A DNA stretch of 38,064 bases from a virus (lineage: Duplodnaviria; Heunggongvirae; Uroviricota; Caudoviricetes). Of the stretch, positions 2,214-31,833 are shown in pieces. Where the stretch lies: the IMG/VR virus record IMGVR_UViG_2526164598_000023; one strand, written 5' to 3'. The notes beneath the pieces are model-generated. The model worked only from the letters and a program-made list of their open reading frames with translations, was not told where the DNA came from and searched no databases. Made by a program: the position numbers and the translations under genes. Each line of letters starts with the position of its first letter. Position 1 is the stretch's first letter.

Positions 2214-3367
2214 GCTCTTACGATGTAATTAAATGCAACGTTGCGAGGGCGAGTTTCTGTACCTACATTTCCACTAATTTCACCAAACCGTCTTACATTA
2301 CGAGAGCTAATGGCTCGTAGTGAGGAAGGCACCTTTAAACCGGGTTCGTCTGTTTTAACTATTCCCCCGTCCCCGTATGTAGCCAGTATTCCAGGGTTTA
2401 CTCCTTCCCGTGTGCTTCCCGTGGCAAGTCCATCCCCGGTCCATAATTCCATATAGTGTGCATGATCCAAAATTGTGTGTGGCTGCCAATTAAGCAAAGC
2501 GCGGCCAGCATCCACCCCGCGCCCATCATCCCAGCCGCGAATAAATTCTCCCCGTAAATCCGGTAATTTATTGGCGGGGTAGGCCTTTGCCAGATTGGGG
2601 TACATTTCAGAAGAAAATGCTGCACCGTTACATTTCAGCCACCCCGTTGGCGGCGTGGCTGAAGGCCATGGAACGGGCACACCAACGGGCAGCGCCGAGC
2701 CTTCCCCTAAACCAAGGTAATTGAGGACTTCTTTTATACTGCCCATAGCGATAATAGCGCGACCAATAGCTGTAAGGGTTGTCAGTGCTGCGCGGTCTGC
2801 TCCGGTAAAATAAGGCAACCGATCTGCTGCAGTGGCAAGTCCTGCCAGAGCAGTGAGCGTGGCATCTGCCGGTTGTTTTCCGTTTGCCAGATCGTATGCA
2901 GCCTTGACCGCTTTCGGTGTGGCGGCCAGTATTTCAGACGTGCTGTTGATGTCACTGCTCAATTGTACGGTGCCTTTTGCCGTCAGCGAGGCAGCAGGCA
3001 CTCCCGTTATCTGACTCCACGGGTGAGTATGGCTGACGGGGGCCTTGCCGGCAGCCAGGTCATATGCAGCCTTGACGGCCTTTGGTGTGGCGGCCAGCGT
3101 TTCAGAGGTGCTGTTGGTGGCACTGCTCAGTTGGGTGAACCCCTTAGCTGTCAGTGTCGCGTCCGGGTGGTTACGGGAACGTACGTGTTCAGCCAGTGAC
3201 TGTGCGGCTTCCTCCGTTTTTTTCTTCAGCCATTTCGTCCTGTTTGCCAGTTGCCGGGGGGCTCGATTTGATATCCCGTCTGCACCACCCAGAACCGGAT
3301 CTGATGTCTCCAGTTGATAGATATTTTCTTCCCACTTTTCTGTTTCATTCAGGTTTCCCATAATCAA
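2207..3367 (-). CDS. Tail fibre protein (Mu S / P2 H-like), constant N-terminal part fused to cassette V1, 386 aa
   Basis: Contains P2 H-like repeats (HPDATLTAKGFTQLSSATNSTSETLAATPKAVKAAYDLA) and QPADATLTALAGLATAADRLPYFTG, then the conserved cassette block, and ends ETRPRNVAFNYIVRAA. Confidence 0.9.
   Translation of the reverse strand: MIMGNLNETEKWEENIYQLETSDPVLGGADGISNRAPRQLANRTKWLKKKTEEAAQSLAEHVRSRNHPDATLTAKGFTQLSSATNSTSETLAATPKAVKAAYDLAAGKAPVSHTHPWSQITGVPAASLTAKGTVQLSSDINSTSEILAATPKAVKAAYDLANGKQPADATLTALAGLATAADRLPYFTGADRAALTTLTAIGRAIIAMGSIKEVLNYLGLGEGSALPVGVPVPWPSATPPTGWLKCNGAAFSSEMYPNLAKAYPANKLPDLRGEFIRGWDDGRGVDAGRALLNWQPHTILDHAHYMELWTGDGLATGSTREGVNPGILATYGDGGIVKTDEPGLKVPSSLRAISSRNVRRFGEISGNVGTETRPRNVAFNYIVRAA
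2702..2727. other. hix/gix-like recombination site 3, at the constant/variable junction of the expressed fibre
   Basis: Plus strand TTCCCCTAAACC-AA-GGTAATTGAGGA. The central AAACCAAGGT is identical to the remembered hixL centre. Encodes ...LNYLGLGE. Confidence 0.6.
2885..3163 (-). repeat. Two tandem repeat units of about 108 nt inside the tail fibre gene, period 171 nt (57 codons)
   Basis: 2891-2950 and 3058-3120 are about 85% identical. They encode the two LTAKG..QLSS..NSTSE.LAATPKAVKAAYDLA units. Confidence 0.7.
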
Positions 3368-23107: not shown

Positions 23108-23754
23108 TTCTGTAATCCTTCCCGTTCATCCAGTAACGCGTTTATCTGGTTCCGCCAGCGACGACATTGTCCTGCGTTGTCGATGATGTTGGCGAGAACG
23201 TCACGCTGGGAGACACCCGAATCGCGTAACCGGGTGTCAGTGGTTTCAGGTTGCCCGGTCGCTGTGCCAGAGCGGGTGCCAGCGGCGGCAACTGAGTCTG
23301 AATGACCGGTGTCGACGGATGCGTTGTCATATCCGAGTGCGGCGTTGTACTGGCGCACGAAACCGCGAGTAAACACGCACTCAATGGGATGGCTCTTACC
23401 TTTTTCATCAATCCAGCGCTGTGTGACATCGTTAATTTGCCCCTGTAGTTGTTTGTTCCGGCTCTCCAGTTGAGCAATCTGCTCAAGATAACCGGCTTCA
23501 GCCCGCTGCCCGGCGGCCACCTGCTCCTGATACCGTCTGGCCCAGGCCCGCAGCGCAGCATTCTCAAGCGTTGCCTGCTCCGTTTTGTACGCGTCAAATG
23601 CTGACTGCAACTGACTGAGCGCGGTATCACCGTCACGCTTTGCAGAGTCATGACCACTTCTGTATCCCATGGCATACAGGCCGACCAGAAAGGCATTGAT
23701 AAGAATGGCCAGCAGAATGCCGCGCCACGGCAGCTTTTTAACCAGATGCCGCAC
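23104..23754 (-). CDS. i-spanin-like protein (start uncertain; GTG at 23752-23754 proposed)
   Basis: N-terminal TM (ILLAILINAFLVGLYAMGY) then a long coiled-coil-like periplasmic domain. The track start at 23856 would overlap the endolysin gene by about 118 nt. Confidence 0.5.
   Translation of the reverse strand: MRHLVKKLPWRGILLAILINAFLVGLYAMGYRSGHDSAKRDGDTALSQLQSAFDAYKTEQATLENAALRAWARRYQEQVAAGQRAEAGYLEQIAQLESRNKQLQGQINDVTQRWIDEKGKSHPIECVFTRGFVRQYNAALGYDNASVDTGHSDSVAAAGTRSGTATGQPETTDTRLRDSGVSQRDVLANIIDNAGQCRRWRNQINALLDEREGLQK
23142..23408 (-). CDS. o-spanin-like lipoprotein nested in another frame inside the i-spanin gene, 88 aa
   Basis: ATG at 23406-23408; MKKVRAIPLSACLLAVSC has a signal peptide and lipobox-like LAVSC, followed by a Pro-rich mature region. 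Confidence 0.55.
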   Translation of the reverse strand: MKKVRAIPLSACLLAVSCASTTPHSDMTTHPSTPVIQTQLPPLAPALAQRPGNLKPLTPGYAIRVSPSVTFSPTSSTTQDNVVAGGTR

Positions 23755-24472
23755 AACTGCTGCCTCCCCATGTGAGATATCGCGGTGCCAGTTCGCGCAG
23801 GATGCGCTGCGGATAATGGCGGTTCTCCCGCCAGCTGGCCGCATTGCGTCCGGCATTCACCGTGGCGACATGTCCGAACCAGCGGGTGCTGTCCAGACCT
23901 TTCTGTGATGCAAGCCGCCTGTCCCGTTGTACCCAGCCCAGACCACCGTTATAGCCCGACAGTGTCATGGCCATACGCTCGCAGTCACTGGCGGCGCTGA
24001 CACGCTGCCACAGCCAGCGGTCATAGCTGACCAGCGCCCGGATAGCCCATGCCGGATTAAACGGCTCACGACTGCTCAGCATCGGTATCAACTGGCTTAT
24101 CCAGTCGGCAGTGGCAGGCATGAACTGCGCCAGTCCCTGAGCGCCAGCCGGCGAGATCGCATCAGGTCGCCAGCCGCTTTCCTGATGCAGTTGCGCGGCG
24201 AAATCGGCCACCGGCGCAGACAGTCCCCATTCAAGCCGGGCATTACGGATCACATCATCGCGATACTGCAGCGCAGCCTGCGGGGGCTGCGCTGCGCATG
24301 CCTGGCTGAAAAAGCCGCCACACCAGAGCAGCCAGACAATCACCAGGTTGCCAGCAAGCTGCCACCAGAAGCTGTATTTATCGTTACGTGGTTCTCCGTG
24401 TCTGATGGCGGTTACGCCCAGACCAAAGGCGAACAGAATAATGAGGGTGATTTGAGGCCAGTTCATGGTCAC
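23738..24472 (-). CDS. Lytic transglycosylase (SLT domain) endolysin with N-terminal membrane anchor, 244 aa
   Basis: Two N-terminal hydrophobic helices followed by an SLT-type catalytic region with QLHQESGW and AQGLAQFMPATA. Confidence 0.8.
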   Translation of the reverse strand: MTMNWPQITLIILFAFGLGVTAIRHGEPRNDKYSFWWQLAGNLVIVWLLWCGGFFSQACAAQPPQAALQYRDDVIRNARLEWGLSAPVADFAAQLHQESGWRPDAISPAGAQGLAQFMPATADWISQLIPMLSSREPFNPAWAIRALVSYDRWLWQRVSAASDCERMAMTLSGYNGGLGWVQRDRRLASQKGLDSTRWFGHVATVNAGRNAASWRENRHYPQRILRELAPRYLTWGGSSCAASG

Positions 24473-24819
24473 AGTCCTGTTGCCACAGCCAGGCAGACCG
24501 CTGCAACAATCAGTGCACGGCGGATTAACGCAGCAGAAAACACCAGGTGAAGGCCGGTCTGTACCGGGAAACGCCCTTCAGCCATCAGCCTGTCGTCATG
24601 TTTCAGGTACTGACCGGGACGGGCTTTGGGGAAGAGCGAACGGTCAAGCCAGTAACCCAGCACTGCTGCCAGCGTGATAAGTGCCAGCTTGTAGATCACA
24701 ACAGGCAACTGCTGTGGCGAGACCAGAGCGATGATGCCCAGCAACAGCACTGAGGTCAGCAGCCAGCCGCTGAGGCGAGGTTTTTTAACAGGGGGAATGA
24801 ATTTTTTCAGGTTTTTCAT
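24469..24819 (-). CDS. Putative holin, three predicted TM segments, 116 aa
   Basis: Start placed at ATG 24817-24819 (MKNLKKF...) with AGGAG RBS; the stop overlaps the endolysin start by 4 nt. Confidence 0.4.
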   Translation of the reverse strand: MKNLKKFIPPVKKPRLSGWLLTSVLLLGIIALVSPQQLPVVIYKLALITLAAVLGYWLDRSLFPKARPGQYLKHDDRLMAEGRFPVQTGLHLVFSAALIRRALIVAAVCLAVATGL

Positions 24820-24933
24820 GTGTGTCTCCTCGTTTGGTGGAGACAGCATCACAAATGTGGCGGGATACGGATTTTAAACAGCGTTAATAGTGAAGATGTA
24901 AACGTGCACTGCATGATGACTTTGAAAGAACGA

Positions 24934-24961
24934 CCAGCCCGGTACCCGAACACCGGGCTGG
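24934..24961 (-). terminator. GC-rich stem-loop (10-bp stem, 8-nt loop), possible insulator/terminator upstream of the late operon
   Basis: CCAGCCCGGT-acccgaac-ACCGGGCTGG; on the minus strand it is followed by TCGTTCTTTC. Confidence 0.3.
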
Positions 24962-25007
24962 CCATCGCCCCACAGGAATGCGCTGTGAGCCGACCGAGGT
25001 TCAGTCA

Positions 25008-25019
25008 GTCTCGCGAGAC
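25008..25019. promoter_or_regulatory. Perfect 12-bp palindrome GTCTCGCGAGAC upstream of the methyltransferase gene
   Basis: Self-complementary 12-mer about 48 nt upstream of the ATG at 25067; TATAAT hexamer at 25042-25047. Confidence 0.25.
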
Positions 25020-25066
25020 CAGACTAGCCTGCCATATTTTTTATAATTGTAAAAGGCTTACAGATT

Positions 25067-25837
25067 ATGAAAATGCAGACATTACCCATCGTTCCATGGA
25101 TTGGTGGCAAACGCCGCCTTGCAAAACACATCCTGCCGCTGTTTCCGGCGCATGAATGTTATGTGGAGCCGTTTTGTGGGGCAGCAGCGCTCTATTTTCT
25201 TAAGGTACCCGGCAAGATCGAAGTCATTAATGATATCAACGGTGAACTGGTGAACCTGTATCGGGTGGTAAAACATCATCTGGAAGAATTTGTACGCCAG
25301 TTCAAATGGGCGCTGGTCAGCCGGCAGATCTACAAATGGCTGCAGATCACCCCGGAAGAAACACTGACGGATATCCAGCGTGCAGCACGGTTCTACTACC
25401 TTCAGAAGCAGGCGTTTGGAGGCAAGGTGGCGGAGCACAGCTTTGGTACCTCCACCATATCCCCGCCACGCTTCAACCTGCTGCGTATTGAAGAAGAACT
25501 GTCAGCGGCACACCTGCGGCTTTCCAGAACGGTCATAGAACACATGGACTGGCAACAGTGCATAGAACGATATGATCGCCCGCATACGTTGTTCTACTGT
25601 GACCCTCCATACTGGGGAACGGAAGGTTATGGTGTGGAGTTCGGACTAGAAAATTATGATCATATGGCAGATTTAGCACGCAGGATCAAAGGGAAGATGA
25701 TTATATCGGTGAACGATATCCCGGAAATGCGGCAGGCATTCAACGGTCTAAATATTCAGTCGGTTGATATCAGCTACAACCTCAAGATCACTGGCAAATC
25801 CAGTCGCAAGAAGGAACTCATTATCCTCAACTTTTGA
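25067..25837 (+). CDS. N6-adenine DNA methyltransferase, Dam-like, orphan (no adjacent restriction endonuclease), 256 aa
   Basis: AdoMet motif EPFCGAAALYF near the N-terminus and catalytic DPPY (YCDPPYWGTEGYG). Confidence 0.85.
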   Translation: MKMQTLPIVPWIGGKRRLAKHILPLFPAHECYVEPFCGAAALYFLKVPGKIEVINDINGELVNLYRVVKHHLEEFVRQFKWALVSRQIYKWLQITPEETLTDIQRAARFYYLQKQAFGGKVAEHSFGTSTISPPRFNLLRIEEELSAAHLRLSRTVIEHMDWQQCIERYDRPHTLFYCDPPYWGTEGYGVEFGLENYDHMADLARRIKGKMIISVNDIPEMRQAFNGLNIQSVDISYNLKITGKSSRKKELIILNF

Positions 25838-27032
25838 CCGAATAGTAAGACTTCATGCAGTGAATCAAGTACTGCATGAAGTCAAGGGCTGGTTTTGTGT
25901 ACCAAAAATAAACAGTGATAGCGGTAATAATTCCCATAACTAGAACACCACGTATAATCCAGAACGTACGTTTCTGCGTGTCTAGTCGCGCAGAAATACT
26001 GCTAAATACACCAGCCACGTCATCTTTAATGAAGGAATATTCCTTATTAATCTGTTTTTCTTTGTATTCAATTTCTTCGCCTAAGGCCTTTATAGATTGC
26101 ATCTGGTTCGAAAGTGCCAGCCAGATTAACGTTGCAGCAAAAATGCATCCCAGAAGAATTATTGTGTTTGTTATCCCTTGGCCTGACCATTTCGTAGCCA
26201 CTTTGAATTGGGTAGCTACGATAACAGAGGCAACAGGAATGCCAAGTATATGGTTCTGGATATCTGAAAACGCTTTGTGGATTTTACCCATTTCTTCGAC
26301 TTTTGCAGCACGCAGTTGATCCATTACTTTGTCATAAGAGAATCCAGAAGAGTAGATACGATACCCTTTCAGAAACTTTTCATGCAGACGCTGAATATTG
26401 TCCAGTAAATAAGCGAATACTAGAGGTGAATCAATTCCATCACTAACTGCTTGGATACTTTCAATCAGAATATCTAGCTTCTGATCCTTATGGGTATCAT
26501 CATTGAAACAAGCTATAAGGTTATCAAGATACTCTCTTTGCAAATTTTGTACATTTTCTGCAGCGAAGTGCGGTAATAGCTTGATAACTTCTTTTTTCAG
26601 AAAAACTAACTGACAAGTTGAGTTATCAAAGTAGGCCGCGGCCTCTTTTAGCAGGTTAACGAACTCGAGAATCTTCCGGTAGTTGCTGATGAAAACGGGG
26701 ATATCTTCATCATCATTACGAAACTTTGTTTCTAGGATGAAGTAATTAGCTGGCTCAAGGCACTGATGCTTTGGAGCATTTAGCAATTTTTCATGGGTGG
26801 AAAACACAAGTCCCAGTCCACTCCGTGGTGACGTCACACGTAGGATGATCGTGTTACCTGGAGCGATAGTGCCTGTATCAATAGAAAGACCATATTCACG
26901 AGGATCATCAAGCAAAGTATCAACCAGATCACAATCGGACTGATCTAAGAGCAACAGCGAACCGACACGAAACCCCTCTTGGAATTCCATACGACGATAC
27001 AGATCTGTCAGCATCTCAAATGAAATCGCCAC
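25827..27032 (-). CDS. Membrane protein with soluble N-terminal domain and two C-terminal TM helices, 401 aa
   Basis: GTG start at 27030-27032 two nt after the upstream stop, with a GAGG RBS (alternative ATG at 27014). TM helices ITNTIILLGCIFAATLIWLALS and FWIIRGVLVMGIITAITVYFWY; AT-rich codon usage. Confidence 0.65.
   Translation of the reverse strand: MAISFEMLTDLYRRMEFQEGFRVGSLLLLDQSDCDLVDTLLDDPREYGLSIDTGTIAPGNTIILRVTSPRSGLGLVFSTHEKLLNAPKHQCLEPANYFILETKFRNDDEDIPVFISNYRKILEFVNLLKEAAAYFDNSTCQLVFLKKEVIKLLPHFAAENVQNLQREYLDNLIACFNDDTHKDQKLDILIESIQAVSDGIDSPLVFAYLLDNIQRLHEKFLKGYRIYSSGFSYDKVMDQLRAAKVEEMGKIHKAFSDIQNHILGIPVASVIVATQFKVATKWSGQGITNTIILLGCIFAATLIWLALSNQMQSIKALGEEIEYKEKQINKEYSFIKDDVAGVFSSISARLDTQKRTFWIIRGVLVMGIITAITVYFWYTKPALDFMQYLIHCMKSYYSVKS
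25849..25883. repeat. Perfect 13-bp inverted repeat with 9-nt spacer
   Basis: GACTTCATGCAGT-gaatcaagt-ACTGCATGAAGTC, 12 nt past the methyltransferase stop and inside the last codons of the convergent 401-aa gene, at the boundary where composition becomes AT-rich. Confidence 0.7.
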
Positions 27033-27034
27033 GA

Positions 27035-28042
27035 TTAAACCTCAGTCATCCACATTTCCCTAAATTCTTCAGGTACATTACGTAGGGTGATAATATTTGT
27101 TTCCGGATCATAATCAATATAGCCTTCAGTTTTCCCTTCCCGGTCAAACTTAAGTTCCCAATATTTAGACTTGCCTTTAAAAGATACCAGAGCCCGAATG
27201 ACTCGACCATCAGGAACGAAGCCATCCGATAACTCCAACTCTTCAGCAGCAAGTTTACCAGATAACTCCTCGGGAGCCTGGGGCCAAATGGCATTAACAA
27301 GGGTTTCAAGACTAAGTGGTTCACCAGCCTTACTTAGTGCATGTAAGTGTTCAAACGCACTCTTAAGAAATGCATCTTTTTCAGCGCCGTCAAGTCCTTT
27401 CTCTGCCGCAAATGCTTTTAAAACGTCACGTAACTTTTCAGACTCTCGTTTGGCGATTAAGACATCATTACAGCCGAGGAACTGTTTAAAATAGTTTGAA
27501 ACATTACCTTGCCCCTTAAGAAAACTGATATAGCGCTCTGCGCCACTTTCCCACGCGGTTAAGTCAATGCGCCCAGCCATACGCAGCTTAGCAATATCAA
27601 GATAGGTACTATCTTGGATGTTAAAATCATCTGTGACAGTGGATCCAATGGTAGCGCTTACAATAGCTATCAACAGGTGTTCATTGTGTCCTATCACGAT
27701 ATTTGCAAAAAGAACATAACCACCAGTAGCCATGTTTTCTCGCTGAGAACGTTCCGTCAGGTGATGCATCATTCGGCAGGAACTTTGGTAGAAATCATCA
27801 ACACCTTCGAGAAAGTCCCCAGCCATTCGTTCCATAGGATAGTTATCCGTATCGCCTTCAAAATAGCCATAACCTTTACCTGTGCGTCCTGCATATTTTG
27901 CACAAATATCGTTTATAAGGCGCTGGGAGGCTTCAGTAACTAGACCTTCTTCAGGACTCAATCTCTCAGAAGCGTCTCCATTTTGTTGTTTGTCTAAAAT
28001 GTGAACTACAACGTGTTTAACTTCAATGGTCTGCTCAGACAT
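27035..28042 (-). CDS. NdpA/YejK-like nucleoid-associated protein homologue, 335 aa
   Basis: Segments GGYVLFANI..HLLIAIVS, YLDIAKLRMAGRIDLTAWESGAERYISFLKGQ and the C-terminal YIDYDPETNIITLRNVP resemble E. coli YejK as I remember it; same length (335 aa). ATG 28040-28042 with AAGGTGGA RBS. Confidence 0.65.
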   Translation of the reverse strand: MSEQTIEVKHVVVHILDKQQNGDASERLSPEEGLVTEASQRLINDICAKYAGRTGKGYGYFEGDTDNYPMERMAGDFLEGVDDFYQSSCRMMHHLTERSQRENMATGGYVLFANIVIGHNEHLLIAIVSATIGSTVTDDFNIQDSTYLDIAKLRMAGRIDLTAWESGAERYISFLKGQGNVSNYFKQFLGCNDVLIAKRESEKLRDVLKAFAAEKGLDGAEKDAFLKSAFEHLHALSKAGEPLSLETLVNAIWPQAPEELSGKLAAEELELSDGFVPDGRVIRALVSFKGKSKYWELKFDREGKTEGYIDYDPETNIITLRNVPEEFREMWMTEV

Positions 28043-28112
28043 TAGCTATCCACCTTATTTTTTATTGCTTAATGGCAAATAATTTCTGCTATATGTTCTC
28101 GTTAGGAACACA

Positions 28113-28520
28113 TTAACCCACATTTTTTAACCGCTCAATCGTTGCGGATAATTCCTTCAGTTGTTTTTCCATCTCAATCACACGCTGTTTTTCTTCAGCG
28201 CCTCGCATGAGATCTCGCCGAACCTCAGGATCTAACTGGTTTAGAAGTTCAAGCATTTTAAGGTCTGACGGGCTGAATTGATGTTGTGTTGGTACAGCAA
28301 CAATTTCTTTAGATGGAATATGTTCTTTACCGGTAAGTAGCCAATCGATCGATACACCCAAATGGGTGCTTAGCGCAACAAGAGCCTCTGCGTTTGGTTC
28401 TCTCTCTCCACGCAAATAGTTTTGAAGTGAGCGATATGGAATTTTTGATAAGTTAGATAATGCCTTTATTGTCATGCCATTAGCATCCATCACTTCACGC
28501 AATCTCTCTTTTGTACTCAT
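28113..28520 (-). CDS. Phage repressor, HTH (XRE-like), 135 aa
   Basis: Start moved to ATG 28518-28520 (MSTKERLREVMDANGMTIKALSNLSKIPYRSLQNYLRGER), an HTH; divergent from the ner-like gene. Confidence 0.7.
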   Translation of the reverse strand: MSTKERLREVMDANGMTIKALSNLSKIPYRSLQNYLRGEREPNAEALVALSTHLGVSIDWLLTGKEHIPSKEIVAVPTQHQFSPSDLKMLELLNQLDPEVRRDLMRGAEEKQRVIEMEKQLKELSATIERLKNVG

Positions 28521-28539
28521 TTGAACATATCTCAATTTG

Positions 28540-28559
28540 ACACACTCATTTGGGTGTGT
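28540..28559. promoter_or_regulatory. Candidate operator dyad ACACAC-N8-GTGTGT in the repressor/ner divergent region
   Basis: 6-bp inverted arms separated by 8 nt, centred between the two divergent starts. Confidence 0.3.
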
Positions 28560-28608
28560 ACAATAGACCCAATAGAGTACATCATAACCTAACAGGAACA
28601 CGGTGCAT

Positions 28609-28833
28609 ATGAACAAACAACAAGTTCGGGCACGGCTGGTTGAACGAGGCAGTAGCTTGCGCCAGTTCGCGCTTAACGCGGGCTATGAACCACGAACAGT
28701 CACCCAGGCAGTCAGTCGCTGGGCTGGTAAAAGTGAACTACCTCGCGGTCGTTTGACTTATCGGATTTTGCGAGATCTATCGGTTGCAATAGGTAAAGAA
28801 GTTACCCCCGGTATCCTTAAGGAGGCGTCATGA
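28609..28833 (+). CDS. ner: Ner-like DNA-binding protein, 74 aa
   Basis: MNKQQVRARLVERGSSLRQFALNAGYEPRTVTQAVSRW... matches the Mu Ner family; ATG 28609 with AGGAA RBS (the track start at 28603 is GTG). Confidence 0.7.
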   Translation: MNKQQVRARLVERGSSLRQFALNAGYEPRTVTQAVSRWAGKSELPRGRLTYRILRDLSVAIGKEVTPGILKEAS

Positions 28834-29138
28834 ATAAACCAAATACATCAAGCTCAGGTACCCGTATTTTGCGCGTTCTTAAGGCCTTACGTGGCCACGC
28901 TTTGAACGGTGTTTCTAACGGGGAACTAGCGGTTGCACTGCACGAATCACCGGCAAACATCAACCGGGCACTTAACACGCTCATTGAAGAAGGGTTGGCT
29001 CTGAAACTAGAAAACGGGCGTTTCGCACCAGGCATCCAGTTGCTGCAGATCGCCATGGCCCACAGTAACGAGATGGCACGTGCACAGGATCGCATTAACG
29101 AAATCAACCAACGTGTTATTTCAGGTAGTCGTTTGTAA
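28830..29138 (+). CDS. Winged-helix DNA-binding protein, 102 aa
   Basis: ILRVLKALRGHALNGVSNGELAVALHESPANINRALNTLIEEGL resembles a MarR/IclR-type wHTH. Confidence 0.5.
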   Translation: MNKPNTSSSGTRILRVLKALRGHALNGVSNGELAVALHESPANINRALNTLIEEGLALKLENGRFAPGIQLLQIAMAHSNEMARAQDRINEINQRVISGSRL

Positions 29139-29148
29139 GGAGTAATCA

Positions 29149-30060
29149 ATGGGACGCACCAAATCACCGGTTAGCACTGAACTGAACGTCGAGGTACCGC
29201 TGTCGGATGATCTCAATGTCAGTCTAAACGCCATGACACAGCATCGCATGGAAATCATGCAACAGTTCGGCGATGGTCTGCCCTATGAGCGCGATCGTGT
29301 TGTCCATGAGGCACGCTTTTATATGGCACAGAGCGCTGAGGCCATGCTGGAGGCAGGTAAGCGGCTGATAATCCTTAAGGAAAATGAACCACACGGGGAG
29401 TTTATAAAGATTCTTGAAAGTGAGTTGGGGCTGGCATACCGGACATCTGTGAGAATGATGCAAGCATCGACAAAATACTTATCCCCGGCGCTGAAACCAA
29501 ATGTGCCAACGTTGGCACATTTGGGAAAAGCCAAACTTTTCGAATTAATGACAGAAGACGACGAAGAGCTTGCCGAACTGGCCGACGGCGGCACAGTTGC
29601 CGGCCTGACGCTTGACGACGTTGATCGCATGTCAGTACGTGAATTGCGTCAGGCCCTGCGCGAAGCGCGCGAAACCAACGCAGCACAACAGCGCGTACTC
29701 GCTGACAAAAATGAAAAAATAGACTCACTCTCCACCAGACTGGAGAAGAAATCCCGTATTCAGCCGCCTGAGCCTGATGAAGAGGTTAAGAAGCTGCGGG
29801 CGGAAGTGACAGCATTAGCGGTTGAGGCGGAATCTGCTATCGCCGTTCGACTGTCCAGCGCTTTTGAGACGCTGTGCGCATATTGTGCTGAAAACATGAT
29901 TGATACCCCCAGAGACTTCATGGCAGGCCTGGTCTGTCAACTGGAAAGCACAGCGCGTAGCCTGCGCTCCACATTTGACCTGCCGGATGAGCCAACAGGC
30001 AATGCCGCGCCTTCATGGCTGACTGAGCCGACGCCACAGATTAACGGGCTGGAGGCATAA
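29149..30060 (+). CDS. Hypothetical protein, 303 aa
   Basis: ORF between the wHTH gene and the transposase; no recognised catalytic motif. Confidence 0.5.
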   Translation: MGRTKSPVSTELNVEVPLSDDLNVSLNAMTQHRMEIMQQFGDGLPYERDRVVHEARFYMAQSAEAMLEAGKRLIILKENEPHGEFIKILESELGLAYRTSVRMMQASTKYLSPALKPNVPTLAHLGKAKLFELMTEDDEELAELADGGTVAGLTLDDVDRMSVRELRQALREARETNAAQQRVLADKNEKIDSLSTRLEKKSRIQPPEPDEEVKKLRAEVTALAVEAESAIAVRLSSAFETLCAYCAENMIDTPRDFMAGLVCQLESTARSLRSTFDLPDEPTGNAAPSWLTEPTPQINGLEA

Positions 30061-30063
30061 CCA

Positions 30064-31833
30064 ATGAATGCTGCCCTGACTGAACGACTGGTTTATGTCG
30101 CCCGCGCGGCACGTGACGCGGGGCATGGTAAACGCGGTGCAATATACGACGCTGCCTGTGCTGAACTTGGCATGTCCCGCGCCACTCTGCTGCGCAGGCT
30201 GAAGGAGGTCTCTGTGACTGATAAACGCAAAAAACGCGCTGATGCCGGACGCAGCGCCCTGACCCGCGACGAAGCCGCGCTGATATCTGCCACACTGCGT
30301 GAGGCCACCCGCAAGAACGGTAAGCGTCTCTATTCCATCGCGGATGCAGTGGAAACCCTGCGGGCTAACGGCTTTATCTCCGCAGGCAGAACAGATGAAA
30401 CCACCGGTGAGTTTTTCCCGTTGTCCGAAGATGCCATCAGTCGTGCCCTGCGTAACTATGGCCTGCACCCGGAACAACTGGATGCTCCTGCGCCGCATAC
30501 CGAAGTGGCCAGTCTGCATCCCAATCATGTCTGGCAGATTGATGCCTCGCTCTGCACGCTTTACTACCTGAGCAATGGACACAAAGGGCTGCAGGTGATG
30601 GACAGCGCGAAGTTCTACAAGAACAAACCCGCTAACCTTGCCCGTATCGCCAGTGACCGCGTGTGGAGTTACGAGATTACCGACCATGCCAGCGGCTGGA
30701 TTTACGTTGAGTATGTGACGGGTGCGGAATCCGGTGAGAACCTGTGTTCTGTGCTTATCAACGCCATGCAGGAGCGTGGCGGCGCAGACGTGCTGCACGG
30801 CGTGCCAAAAATACTCTATCTCGACCCCGGTTCGGCAAACACCGCGGGTATGACGAAAAACATGTGCCGCTCACTGGGCATTGACCTGATAGCGCACAAG
30901 CCGCATAACGCCCGCGCCACCGGACAGGTGGAAAAGGCGCGTGACATTATCGAACGCAAGCTGGAGCCGGGTCTGAAGTTCCGGCCGGTTCACAGTCTGG
31001 AAGAACTCAACGCGCTGGCCGCGAAATGGCGCAGCCACTTTAACGCCACGGCTGTTCACAGCCGCCACGGTAAAACCCGCACGGATATCTGGCTGAAGAT
31101 TACTGCTGAGCAGCTGAAAAAAGCGCCTTCCGTTGAGGTATGTCGTGAACTGGCTGTGGCGGCACCAGAACTCCGCAAAGTCACGCCAAAACTTCGTGTC
31201 TCGTTCCGGGGCACTGAATTTGACGTATCAACGGTACCGGGCGTACTGGTCGGTGAAAAACTGATGATTACCCGTAACCCGTGGCGCAGCGATGTGGCAC
31301 AGGTGGTTCTGACCGGTGAGGACGGCCACGAGACGTTCTTCCTGGTCGAAGAGGTCAGAAAGAACGAGTTTGGCTTTGCTGAAGGCGCGGCGGTATTTGG
31401 CGAAAGTTACAAAGCCCTGCCGGAAACCCCGGCGCAGATGGCGGCAAAAGAAACCGAAGCGCTGGTCACCGGTACAGACAACGCCGCAGATGCAGCTGCC
31501 GCACGCAAGGCGAAGGCGCTGCCGTTCGGCGGGCGGCTTGACCCGTATAAACATATTGATGACGCCACACTTCCGGCCTATATGCCGAAGCGAGGTCAGG
31601 CCTCTGACGTACGCGGACCGCGCACTGAACAGCGTCCCATGACTCATGTGGAGGCCGCGAAAGCCCTGCGCGGGAAGTTCAGCGCCAACGGCCTTACCTG
31701 GACGCCGGAACATTACCGCCAGTTAACGGCACAGTACCCGGACGGCGTACCGGAAGCCGCACTGGATGAAGTCATGGCCACGCTGACCACGCCGGCCCGC
31801 AGCAGTGTTATCAGCATTGTTAACGGCAACTGA
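30064..31833 (+). CDS. DDE transposase (Mu A-like), 589 aa
   Basis: Candidate DDE residues in HVWQIDAS, ILYLDPGSANTAG and ATGQVEKARD; N-terminal HTH-like region; followed by an AAA+ gene. Confidence 0.8.
   Translation: MNAALTERLVYVARAARDAGHGKRGAIYDAACAELGMSRATLLRRLKEVSVTDKRKKRADAGRSALTRDEAALISATLREATRKNGKRLYSIADAVETLRANGFISAGRTDETTGEFFPLSEDAISRALRNYGLHPEQLDAPAPHTEVASLHPNHVWQIDASLCTLYYLSNGHKGLQVMDSAKFYKNKPANLARIASDRVWSYEITDHASGWIYVEYVTGAESGENLCSVLINAMQERGGADVLHGVPKILYLDPGSANTAGMTKNMCRSLGIDLIAHKPHNARATGQVEKARDIIERKLEPGLKFRPVHSLEELNALAAKWRSHFNATAVHSRHGKTRTDIWLKITAEQLKKAPSVEVCRELAVAAPELRKVTPKLRVSFRGTEFDVSTVPGVLVGEKLMITRNPWRSDVAQVVLTGEDGHETFFLVEEVRKNEFGFAEGAAVFGESYKALPETPAQMAAKETEALVTGTDNAADAAAARKAKALPFGGRLDPYKHIDDATLPAYMPKRGQASDVRGPRTEQRPMTHVEAAKALRGKFSANGLTWTPEHYRQLTAQYPDGVPEAALDEVMATLTTPARSSVISIVNGN

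Follow-up and report, generated by a model that had tools for sequence, protein, structure and literature searches.

The DNA analysed here (hereafter the window, i.e., the whole stretch of 38,064 nucleotides) is an E. coli prophage of the transposable, Mu-like kind, whose closest deposited phages are Klebsiella phage KP12 and Escherichia phages Phi06_2974 B and PhiKM. The late genes run leftward and end in an SLT transglycosylase gene (23738-24472) and a holin gene (24469-24852); the early genes run rightward from about 28830 and comprise an IclR-type HTH gene, a DUF3102 gene and an rve transposase gene (30064-31833). Four genes are located between the two blocks, i.e., a methylase gene on the plus strand and, on the minus strand, a gene of 401 codons, an NA37 gene and a gene for a CI-type HTH repressor. 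The features of this region are the following:

25067-25837, plus strand: gene of a D12-class N6-adenine DNA methyltransferase (Pfam PF02086, E = 7e-28).
25819-28092, strand-neutral: replaceable cargo segment, delimited by blastn boundaries, annotated relatives and a junction alignment.
25827-27032, minus strand: gene of a 401-aa membrane protein (PHROG 5023, function unknown; no Pfam family).
25838-25848, minus strand: tail of the minus-strand RNA, UUACUAUUCGG, which also separates the methylase stop from the hairpin.
25849-25861, strand-neutral: left arm of the inverted repeat, GACTTCATGCAGT.
25862-25870, strand-neutral: spacer (loop) of 9 nt, GAATCAAGT.
25871-25883, strand-neutral: right arm of the inverted repeat, ACTGCATGAAGTC.
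27035-28042, minus strand: gene of an NA37/YejK-family nucleoid-associated protein (Pfam PF04245, E = 1e-80).
28113-28616, minus strand: gene of a phage repressor-type HTH protein (Pfam HTH_3, Phage_CI_repr).

The methylase is also recognized by the PADLOC model MTase_II (E = 4e-115) and bears the RefSeq name "DNA adenine methylase". The 214-nt intergenic region that separates its gene from the holin gene is unusually conserved. The NA37 protein matches PDB 9be2 (YejK) with E = 7e-30 and retrieves nothing from PADLOC. Its gene is located directly upstream of the 401-aa gene in every locus examined, and the homologues of the 401-aa protein, which are widespread in Proteobacteria, are always encoded after an NA37 gene. 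As for the 401-aa protein itself, a PDB profile search was empty, the comparison of its AF2 model (pLDDT 83 overall, 54 in the last block) with the PDB by Foldseek gave no match below E = 0.1, and in PADLOC just a weak match of the TM region to KwaA (E = 8e-5) was retrieved. The paper describing Kiwa draws no link between KwaB and NA37, and the literature on NdpA/prophage defence and on DUF3102 was uninformative as to the identity of the cargo. The NA37 and membrane-protein genes form an uncharacterised two-gene module that recurs in prophage hotspots and is present also in an island-like locus without phage genes. The repressor gene is co-directional with this pair and lies directly upstream of it, and the 70-nt gap between the repressor and NA37 genes contains no strong hairpin. 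In the early block, the DUF3102 gene embeds a perfect 28-bp palindrome (29497-29524), whose symmetry is kept across 17 variants, with 7 of its 14 pairs changing on both sides and 95.8% of the cells pairing, a degree that none of 500 shuffles matched; this strongly covarying palindrome was judged more intriguing than the hairpin at 25849-25883, which is the subject of the present analysis.

The GC content falls from about 0.55-0.60 to 0.39-0.45 across positions 25500-28500, and the statement of the first-pass annotation that the repeat marks the boundary of an AT-rich insert is thus a fair one. Toward relatives harboring other cargo, blastn homology ends at 25818 and starts again at about 28090; hence, the interval from the methylase to the repressor is replaceable, and the repeat is located within it, about 30 nt from its left edge. 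No direct repeats flank the edges of this segment. The gene arrangement of the window is shared by 19 complete E. coli genomes, and in about 600 E. coli relatives a 175-aa gene endowed with a hairpin of its own takes the place of the NA37 and 401-aa genes.

The inverted repeat is exactly as it had been described, that is, two 13-bp arms (25849-25861 and 25871-25883) separated by nine nucleotides and matching without a single mismatch. The methylase stop codon (TGA) occupies positions 25835-25837, so that the repeat begins, after an interval of 11 bases, at the twelfth base past the stop, in agreement with the distance first reported. The methylase ORF (plus strand) and the 401-aa ORF (minus strand) are convergent and overlap by 11 nt; the repeat, which had been placed inside the final 20 codons of the latter, is located within its last 18 sense codons and encodes the peptide DFMQYLIHCMKS, and the tail of the ORF across the repeat reads ...ALDFMQYLIHCMKSYYSVKS. 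In the 38-kb window, this is the sole perfect 13-bp inverted repeat with a loop of 3-20 nt. Among 300 dinucleotide-preserving shuffles of the window, 1% held any equal repeat (a mean of 0.017 perfect 13-bp inverted repeats per shuffled window), which bears out the initial impression that the repeat is unlikely by chance. It was retrieved in 19 of 5426 E. coli genomes, at one place in each of them and always inside the module formed by the NA37 and 401-aa genes. A scan of positions 24400-29200, both strands, with the Rfam 15 covariance models gave no match at E <= 1.

The fold-energy calculation that the first-pass annotation had proposed was performed and showed that a stem-loop forms in the RNA of both strands, the 35-mer having an energy of -20.4 kcal/mol on the plus strand and of -19.0 kcal/mol on the minus strand; none of 500 shuffled 35-mers (minus-strand test) was as stable. 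In a context of 81-86 nt, the z-scores are -4.1 (plus) and -2.4 (minus). The stem is 13 bp long and reaches 14 bp on the plus strand through a G-U pair, leaving a 7-nt loop, and the GC content of the hairpin is 46%. What follows the stem differs between the strands: the minus-strand tail is U-rich (UUACUAUU, with five U in the eight nucleotides after the stem), whereas the plus-strand tail (AAGGGCUG) has one U in eight and no U-run. A simple scan for consensus terminators does not call the hairpin on either strand, because its loop is 9 nt long and it has no T-run, and the hairpin was accordingly not filed as a canonical terminator. The two transcripts meet the structure in different states. 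In the methylase transcript it is located in untranslated RNA, from the twelfth base past the TGA; in the cargo transcript it lies in translated sequence and ends 22 nt short of the stop of the 401-aa gene, and ribosomes should hinder its folding there. Overall, the hairpin lies within 12-47 nt of the two convergent stops.

In order to follow the hairpin through its relatives, loci carrying the NA37 and 401-aa cargo were compared. The hairpin is kept in all nine haplotypes in which a methylase converges on the cargo (the window, L001, L006, L090, L098, L186, L080, L082 and L007). Its arms are perfect in E. coli L001, in Mixta L006 and in Enterobacter L186 and L090. In L098, where the methylase is intact, one arm change produces an A-C mismatch on the plus strand. 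L080 and the Yersinia-type L082 (so called since its protein, P0009, is named Yersinia enterocolitica) have two to three arm changes, giving rise to C-A mismatches on the cargo strand and to G-U pairs on the methylase strand; the plus-strand folds still reach -23.7 (L080) and -19.8 kcal/mol (L082), and in L080 the changes in the loop extend the stem to 15 bp. In Brenneria L007, one compensatory change from U-A to A-U is observed (-18.1 kcal/mol), the cargo stop codon is located inside the right arm, the hairpin is followed by the tail UGUUUUUCU, and the equivalent of the 25838-25848 stretch is UGCCUGUUUUUCU.

A different picture emerges from the seven loci where no convergent gene faces the cargo (L008, L084, L086, L087, L089, L095 and L088), in which the hairpin is absent and the corresponding segment folds no better than shuffles. 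In six of them, i.e., Pectobacterium L008, L084, Serratia L086, Klebsiella L087, L089 and L095, a co-directional holin gene follows the cargo, and in Plesiomonas (L088) the cargo is embedded in a lambdoid prophage. Brenneria L007, in which the methylase converges and the hairpin is present, and Pectobacterium L008, in which the next gene is co-directional and the hairpin is absent, share 88% protein identity, and their proteins are closer to one another than to those of the window. A small number of independent lineages underlies the correlation between convergence and hairpin, part of which could stem from recombination breakpoints. In three loci of one lineage (L083, L184 and L185), the methylase is reduced to a 3' remnant of about 80 nt (about 27 codons) beside the hairpin, which is eroded by an A-A mismatch and a wobble and folds at -12 to -15 and -8 to -11 kcal/mol.

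As to the conservation of the single parts, the perfect repeat is limited to relatives of 91% protein identity or more, and at 87% the DNA repeat has two to three mismatches. In the closest haplotypes (the window, L006, L090 and L098), 1 of 26 arm columns is variable vs. 9 of 25 flank columns (Fisher p = 0.005), a conservation of the arms that could owe something to the encoded peptide. Across all variants, eight of the nine loop columns vary. Among eight variants, 96.2% of the cells pair on the plus strand and 92.3% on the minus strand; covariation is not significant, since double-sided changes are limited to a single pair and a score as high is reached by 56 of the 500 column shuffles. The G-U wobbles of L080, L082 and L007 had suggested that the structure might be selected on the plus-strand RNA only, a possibility weakened by the plus-strand A-C mismatch of L098 and by the U-rich tail on the minus strand. 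The C-terminal tails of the 401-aa homologues past the last TM helix vary both in length and in sequence, with about 64% identity in the tail vs. 87% over the whole protein (window vs. P0009 of L082). In Brenneria and Pectobacterium, a TAG stop is located in the right arm, at the position where E. coli has AAG and reads eight codons further into the methylase gene.

The comparison of the insert junction with relatives lacking the module, also proposed at first reading, revealed a hairpin of unrelated sequence at the equivalent place. This GC-rich hairpin, AGGTGGTGGTGC-N4-GCAGCACCACCT, is found in E. coli and Klebsiella relatives whose cargo is different and is intergenic; where the cargo is the 175-aa gene, it is located in a gap of 47 nt between the two convergent stops. 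The analysis was then carried to a sample of 80 loci of methylase relatives from viral contigs, 60 distinct downstream contexts of which were examined, scoring the most stable 45-nt fold within 70 nt past the methylase stop against equal windows inside the gene. The best fold after the stop has a mean of -18.1 kcal/mol vs. -13.0 kcal/mol within the gene (Wilcoxon p = 4e-8). The sequences of these hairpins differ between cargo contexts, and many of them face a convergent ORF. In other words, a hairpin just past the methylase stop is the rule in this methylase family, whatever the cargo. Concerning the 47 strong hairpins of this sample, a U-rich tail is found on the methylase strand in 8, on the opposite strand in 16 and on neither in 25; the missing U-run therefore does not set the hairpin of the window apart, which groups with the cases having the U-tail on the opposite strand (UUACUAUU, minus strand).

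From these sequence comparisons, we propose, with a probability of about 0.6, that the repeat is an RNA stem-loop placed at the common 3' end of two convergent units, acting as a terminator or as a hairpin that defines the 3' ends. One unit would be the methylase gene (rightward), and the other the repressor, NA37 and membrane-protein genes (leftward), the repressor gene being likely the start of a lysogenic transcript that ends at the hairpin. We infer both the location of the transcript ends at the hairpin, with their direction(s), and the co-transcription of cargo and repressor. The stem-loop would stop or pause the RNA polymerase coming from either side and would shield both mRNA 3' ends from exonucleases; the stop or pause would keep each unit from producing antisense RNA over the other. 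The presence of the hairpin within an ORF is probably due to the stop codon of the 401-aa gene having drifted past it, in a weakly constrained C-terminal tail.

A bidirectional terminator was among the functions suggested in the first-pass annotation. What the comparative data favour of it is a hairpin at a shared 3' end: unrelated hairpins are located at the equivalent place, the hairpin is retained only with a converging methylase, and conserved arms enclose a variable loop. The hairpin does not conform to a textbook intrinsic terminator, given the plus strand without a U-run and the minus-strand copy inside translated sequence. An attenuator, suggested in the same place, finds no support, because the repeat sits at gene ends and not in a leader.

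The main rival of the shared 3'-end hairpin is a functionless quasi-palindrome, that is, a neutral feature of the tail that was perfected by template-switch correction or by chance and then passed on by recent descent. It is known that quasi-palindrome correction occurs in E. coli, and such an origin would fit the absence of the perfect form below 91% protein identity (two to three DNA mismatches having accumulated by 87%), the lack of significant covariation, and a fast-evolving tail in which the stop codon wanders. However, only about 1% of shuffled windows hold an equal repeat, and the site is exactly the one where both this phage family and this methylase family regularly have a hairpin; moreover, the arms are more conserved than flanks and loop, and the diverged relatives with a convergent gene still fold at -18 to -24 kcal/mol, whereas those without it do not. 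On balance, this explanation appears unlikely, though it deserves more credit than any other competing one. Very little weight can be given to the idea that the arms are conserved for the sake of the tail peptide (DFMQ...CMKS), their symmetry being incidental. The repeat does lie within an annotated ORF, and the close clade does preserve its arms. However, no part of the protein is less conserved than the tail (about 64% vs. 87% overall), which also differs in length, the AF2 confidence is low at the protein end, and in Brenneria the stop falls inside the right arm; besides, selection on a peptide does not predict reverse-complement symmetry.

The two other options entertained at first reading, a protein-binding site and the scar of an insertion, are not supported. 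The perfect dyad symmetry, the 9-bp spacer and the presence of several HTH genes nearby might suggest that the DNA palindrome is bound by a dimeric protein (e.g., the methylase, the NA37 protein, the phage repressor or some other HTH regulator), which is nevertheless quite improbable: there is one copy per genome, in the 19 module-carrying E. coli genomes only; the site, where genes end, is not a regulatory one; the corresponding place in relatives with different cargo is occupied by a hairpin of unrelated sequence; and relatives with this cargo alter the arm bases asymmetrically in DNA yet keep the RNA pairing. Sequences close to that of the arm occur in the window at chance level (20 hits at three mismatches or fewer vs. 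11 +/- 3.6 expected, 4 of the 20 being self hits). Two of them were considered as evidence of a repeated binding motif and discarded: the copy with two mismatches in the intergenic region upstream of the methylase (24908-24920) is not kept in L001, where the same repeat is present, and the copy with one mismatch at 31761-31773 is located inside the transposase gene without a partner. A recombination element or scar, i.e., a marker of the cassette end in cargo exchange (attC-like, or a template-switch junction) or an insertion leftover, might be hinted at by the short distance (about 30 nt) of the repeat from the left end of the replaceable segment that contains it, by the fact that every cargo type has its own hairpin beside the conserved methylase 3' end, and by the methylase-less island copies (L083, L184 and L185), which keep a methylase remnant beside theirs. 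Against it, neither edge is flanked by direct repeats, no integron-type integrase is encoded nearby, and the junctions that were compared showed no evident common core; the flanking methylase and repressor genes suffice for exchange by homologous recombination, and the same cargo exists without the hairpin in other arrangements. As regards a scar in particular, the repeat lies inside the junction rather than at it, and the hairpin is found also in prophages of Enterobacter, Mixta, Yersinia and Brenneria. We consider this origin hardly probable.

A more elaborate version of the terminator, which we regard as improbable, would be direction-selective and gated by translation, the hairpin being untranslated for the methylase transcript and inside the translated tail of the membrane protein for the other. 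This placement would result in a constant stop one way and in a ribosome-dependent one the other way: antisense transcription coming from the methylase side would always be stopped, and the repressor-cargo transcript would be stopped only when ribosomes do not melt the hairpin. If so, read-through antisense to the methylase and lysis genes would be coupled to the translation of the cargo operon. In a variant of the same improbable idea, the 3' hairpins would aid cassette exchange at the hotspot.

Returning to the hairpin as the common 3' end of two convergent units, if this reading is correct, the repeat would represent routine gene-boundary punctuation between the methylase of a prophage and an accessory (possibly anti-phage) operon expressed in the lysogen, insulating them from mutual antisense transcription. 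It might help to delimit the cargo unit (the repressor-proximal NA37 and membrane-protein genes), a candidate defence or exclusion module. As an example, it would illustrate that the cargo swapped into a prophage hotspot regularly has its own 3' hairpin, and that an ORF can run through a 3' hairpin where the C-terminal tail is unconstrained.

With regard to known systems, the immunity operon cI-rexA-rexB of phage lambda ends in its own terminator. The locus of the window may be considered analogous to it, with a repressor followed by two co-directional accessory genes, one of them for a membrane protein, and with a hairpin at the end; however, the proteins are unrelated, the window is a Mu-like transposable and not a lambdoid element, and the co-transcription with the repressor is here a putative one. 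Like REP and other dispersed extragenic palindromes, the repeat is stable and is located where convergent genes end; it differs from them in being single-copy, in 19 E. coli genomes and with no Rfam family, and a dispersed repeat (REP or MITE) was ruled out by the single copy. Regarding an integron attC-type site, no tyrosine integrase is encoded by the genes around the locus, the sole recombinase being the rve-type transposase.

With canonical intrinsic terminators, the hairpin has in common a stem (13 bp, about -19 to -20 kcal/mol) that is followed on the minus strand by UUACUAUU and starts on the plus strand at the twelfth base past a stop codon, and in the Brenneria homologue it is followed by UGUUUUUCU; on the other hand, the plus strand has no U-run, the loop is 9 nt long, the GC content is only 46% and the structure is translated on the minus strand. 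Bidirectional (collision-type) terminators between convergent E. coli genes were reportedly described by Ju et al. in 2019. The bidirectional terminators of convergent E. coli genes look different from intrinsic terminators and depend on a stem-loop of the nascent RNA, which fixes the site of head-on polymerase collision (bioRxiv 10.1101/2022.10.23.513370). The repeat resembles them in being a hairpin at the meeting point of convergent genes, with a stable stem-loop on both strands, without a canonical U-run on at least one side and with a comparative pattern tied to convergence. It differs from them in not being intergenic, since the overlapping tail of one of the two ORFs contains it, and in belonging to a prophage cargo junction rather than to a chromosomal gene pair. 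The one oddity of the hairpin is its placement inside the poorly conserved C-terminal tail of a gene and, judging from its sequence and relatives, it most likely belongs to the non-canonical class of convergent-gene hairpins rather than to the textbook terminators made of a hairpin plus a U-run.

Besides the perfect 13-bp inverted repeat at 25849-25883, the window holds the following repeat features.

29497-29524, plus strand: perfect 28-bp palindrome in the DUF3102 gene (29149-30060)
31761-31773, minus strand: one-mismatch copy of an arm of the 25849-25883 repeat (GACTTCATCCAGT), within the transposase gene
24268-24295: perfect 11-bp inverted repeat GCAGCGCAGCC-N6-GGCTGCGCTGC, within the SLT transglycosylase gene

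The first of these is far better supported than the 25849-25883 repeat itself. The palindrome (CCAAATGTGCCAAC|GTTGGCACATTTGG) has no spacer, and in the relatives its inner bases are changed while the symmetry is retained, as in CCAAAAGCGCAAGC|GCTTGCGCTTTTGG and CCAAAACGCTCAGC|GCTGAGCGTTTTGG. Among 17 variants, both sides were changed in 7 of the 14 pairs, and 95.8% of the cells were paired, a value matched by none of 500 shuffles. The encoded peptide is not constant (PNVPTLAHLG versus PKAQALALLG). The pattern points to a covarying DNA site or an RNA hairpin embedded in coding sequence that immediately precedes the transposase gene. A literature search on DUF3102 yielded nothing informative.

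The other two repeats are of a different weight. The arm copy at 31761-31773 is judged coincidental; about 0.05 one-mismatch copies would be expected per window, according to our own estimate, and no partner arm accompanies it. The 11-bp repeat may be a product of chance, because about 12% of the shuffled windows hold one of this length.

Two further parts of the window were compared with the relatives.

24853-25066: intergenic region with divergent holin and methylase genes on either side
24934-24961: dyad CCAGCCCGGT-N8-ACCGGGCTGG, within this region
25827-28042, minus strand: two-gene module encoding an NA37/YejK-like DNA-binding protein and a 401-aa membrane protein (PHROG 5023)

From E. 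coli to Brenneria, the intergenic region is more conserved than its flanking genes, and it also contains the dyads CACAGG-N6-CTGTG and CAGTCTCGCGAGACCAGACT. It is probably a promoter/activator region for the late and methylase genes, or a structured leader. The same gap is a second cargo hotspot: in the relatives L002, L003 and L004 the cargo at this place is a DUF2441 gene, a 182-aa gene or a pair of small genes, whereas the window carries none.

In the two-gene module, the pairing is invariant in the loci compared. In Mu-like prophages the module is located downstream of the repressor; a lambdoid prophage (L088) has it between xis and recT, and in L083 and L184 it occupies an island-like locus that contains no phage genes. 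At the 3' end of the 401-aa homologue gene of L089 (about 2973-3020), a stretch of 21 nt (GCCTGGGTGCAGTCCTTCTTC) occurs twice in tandem, so that the C-terminal tail reads ...AWVQSFFAWVQSFFA, which adds to the evidence for a plastic tail. The design of the module, a membrane protein paired with a non-specific DNA binder, recalls that of Kiwa, but PADLOC gave only a weak match to KwaA (E = 8e-5), and the AF2 model of the 401-aa protein (pLDDT 83) matched no PDB fold. The module is a candidate for defence or exclusion.
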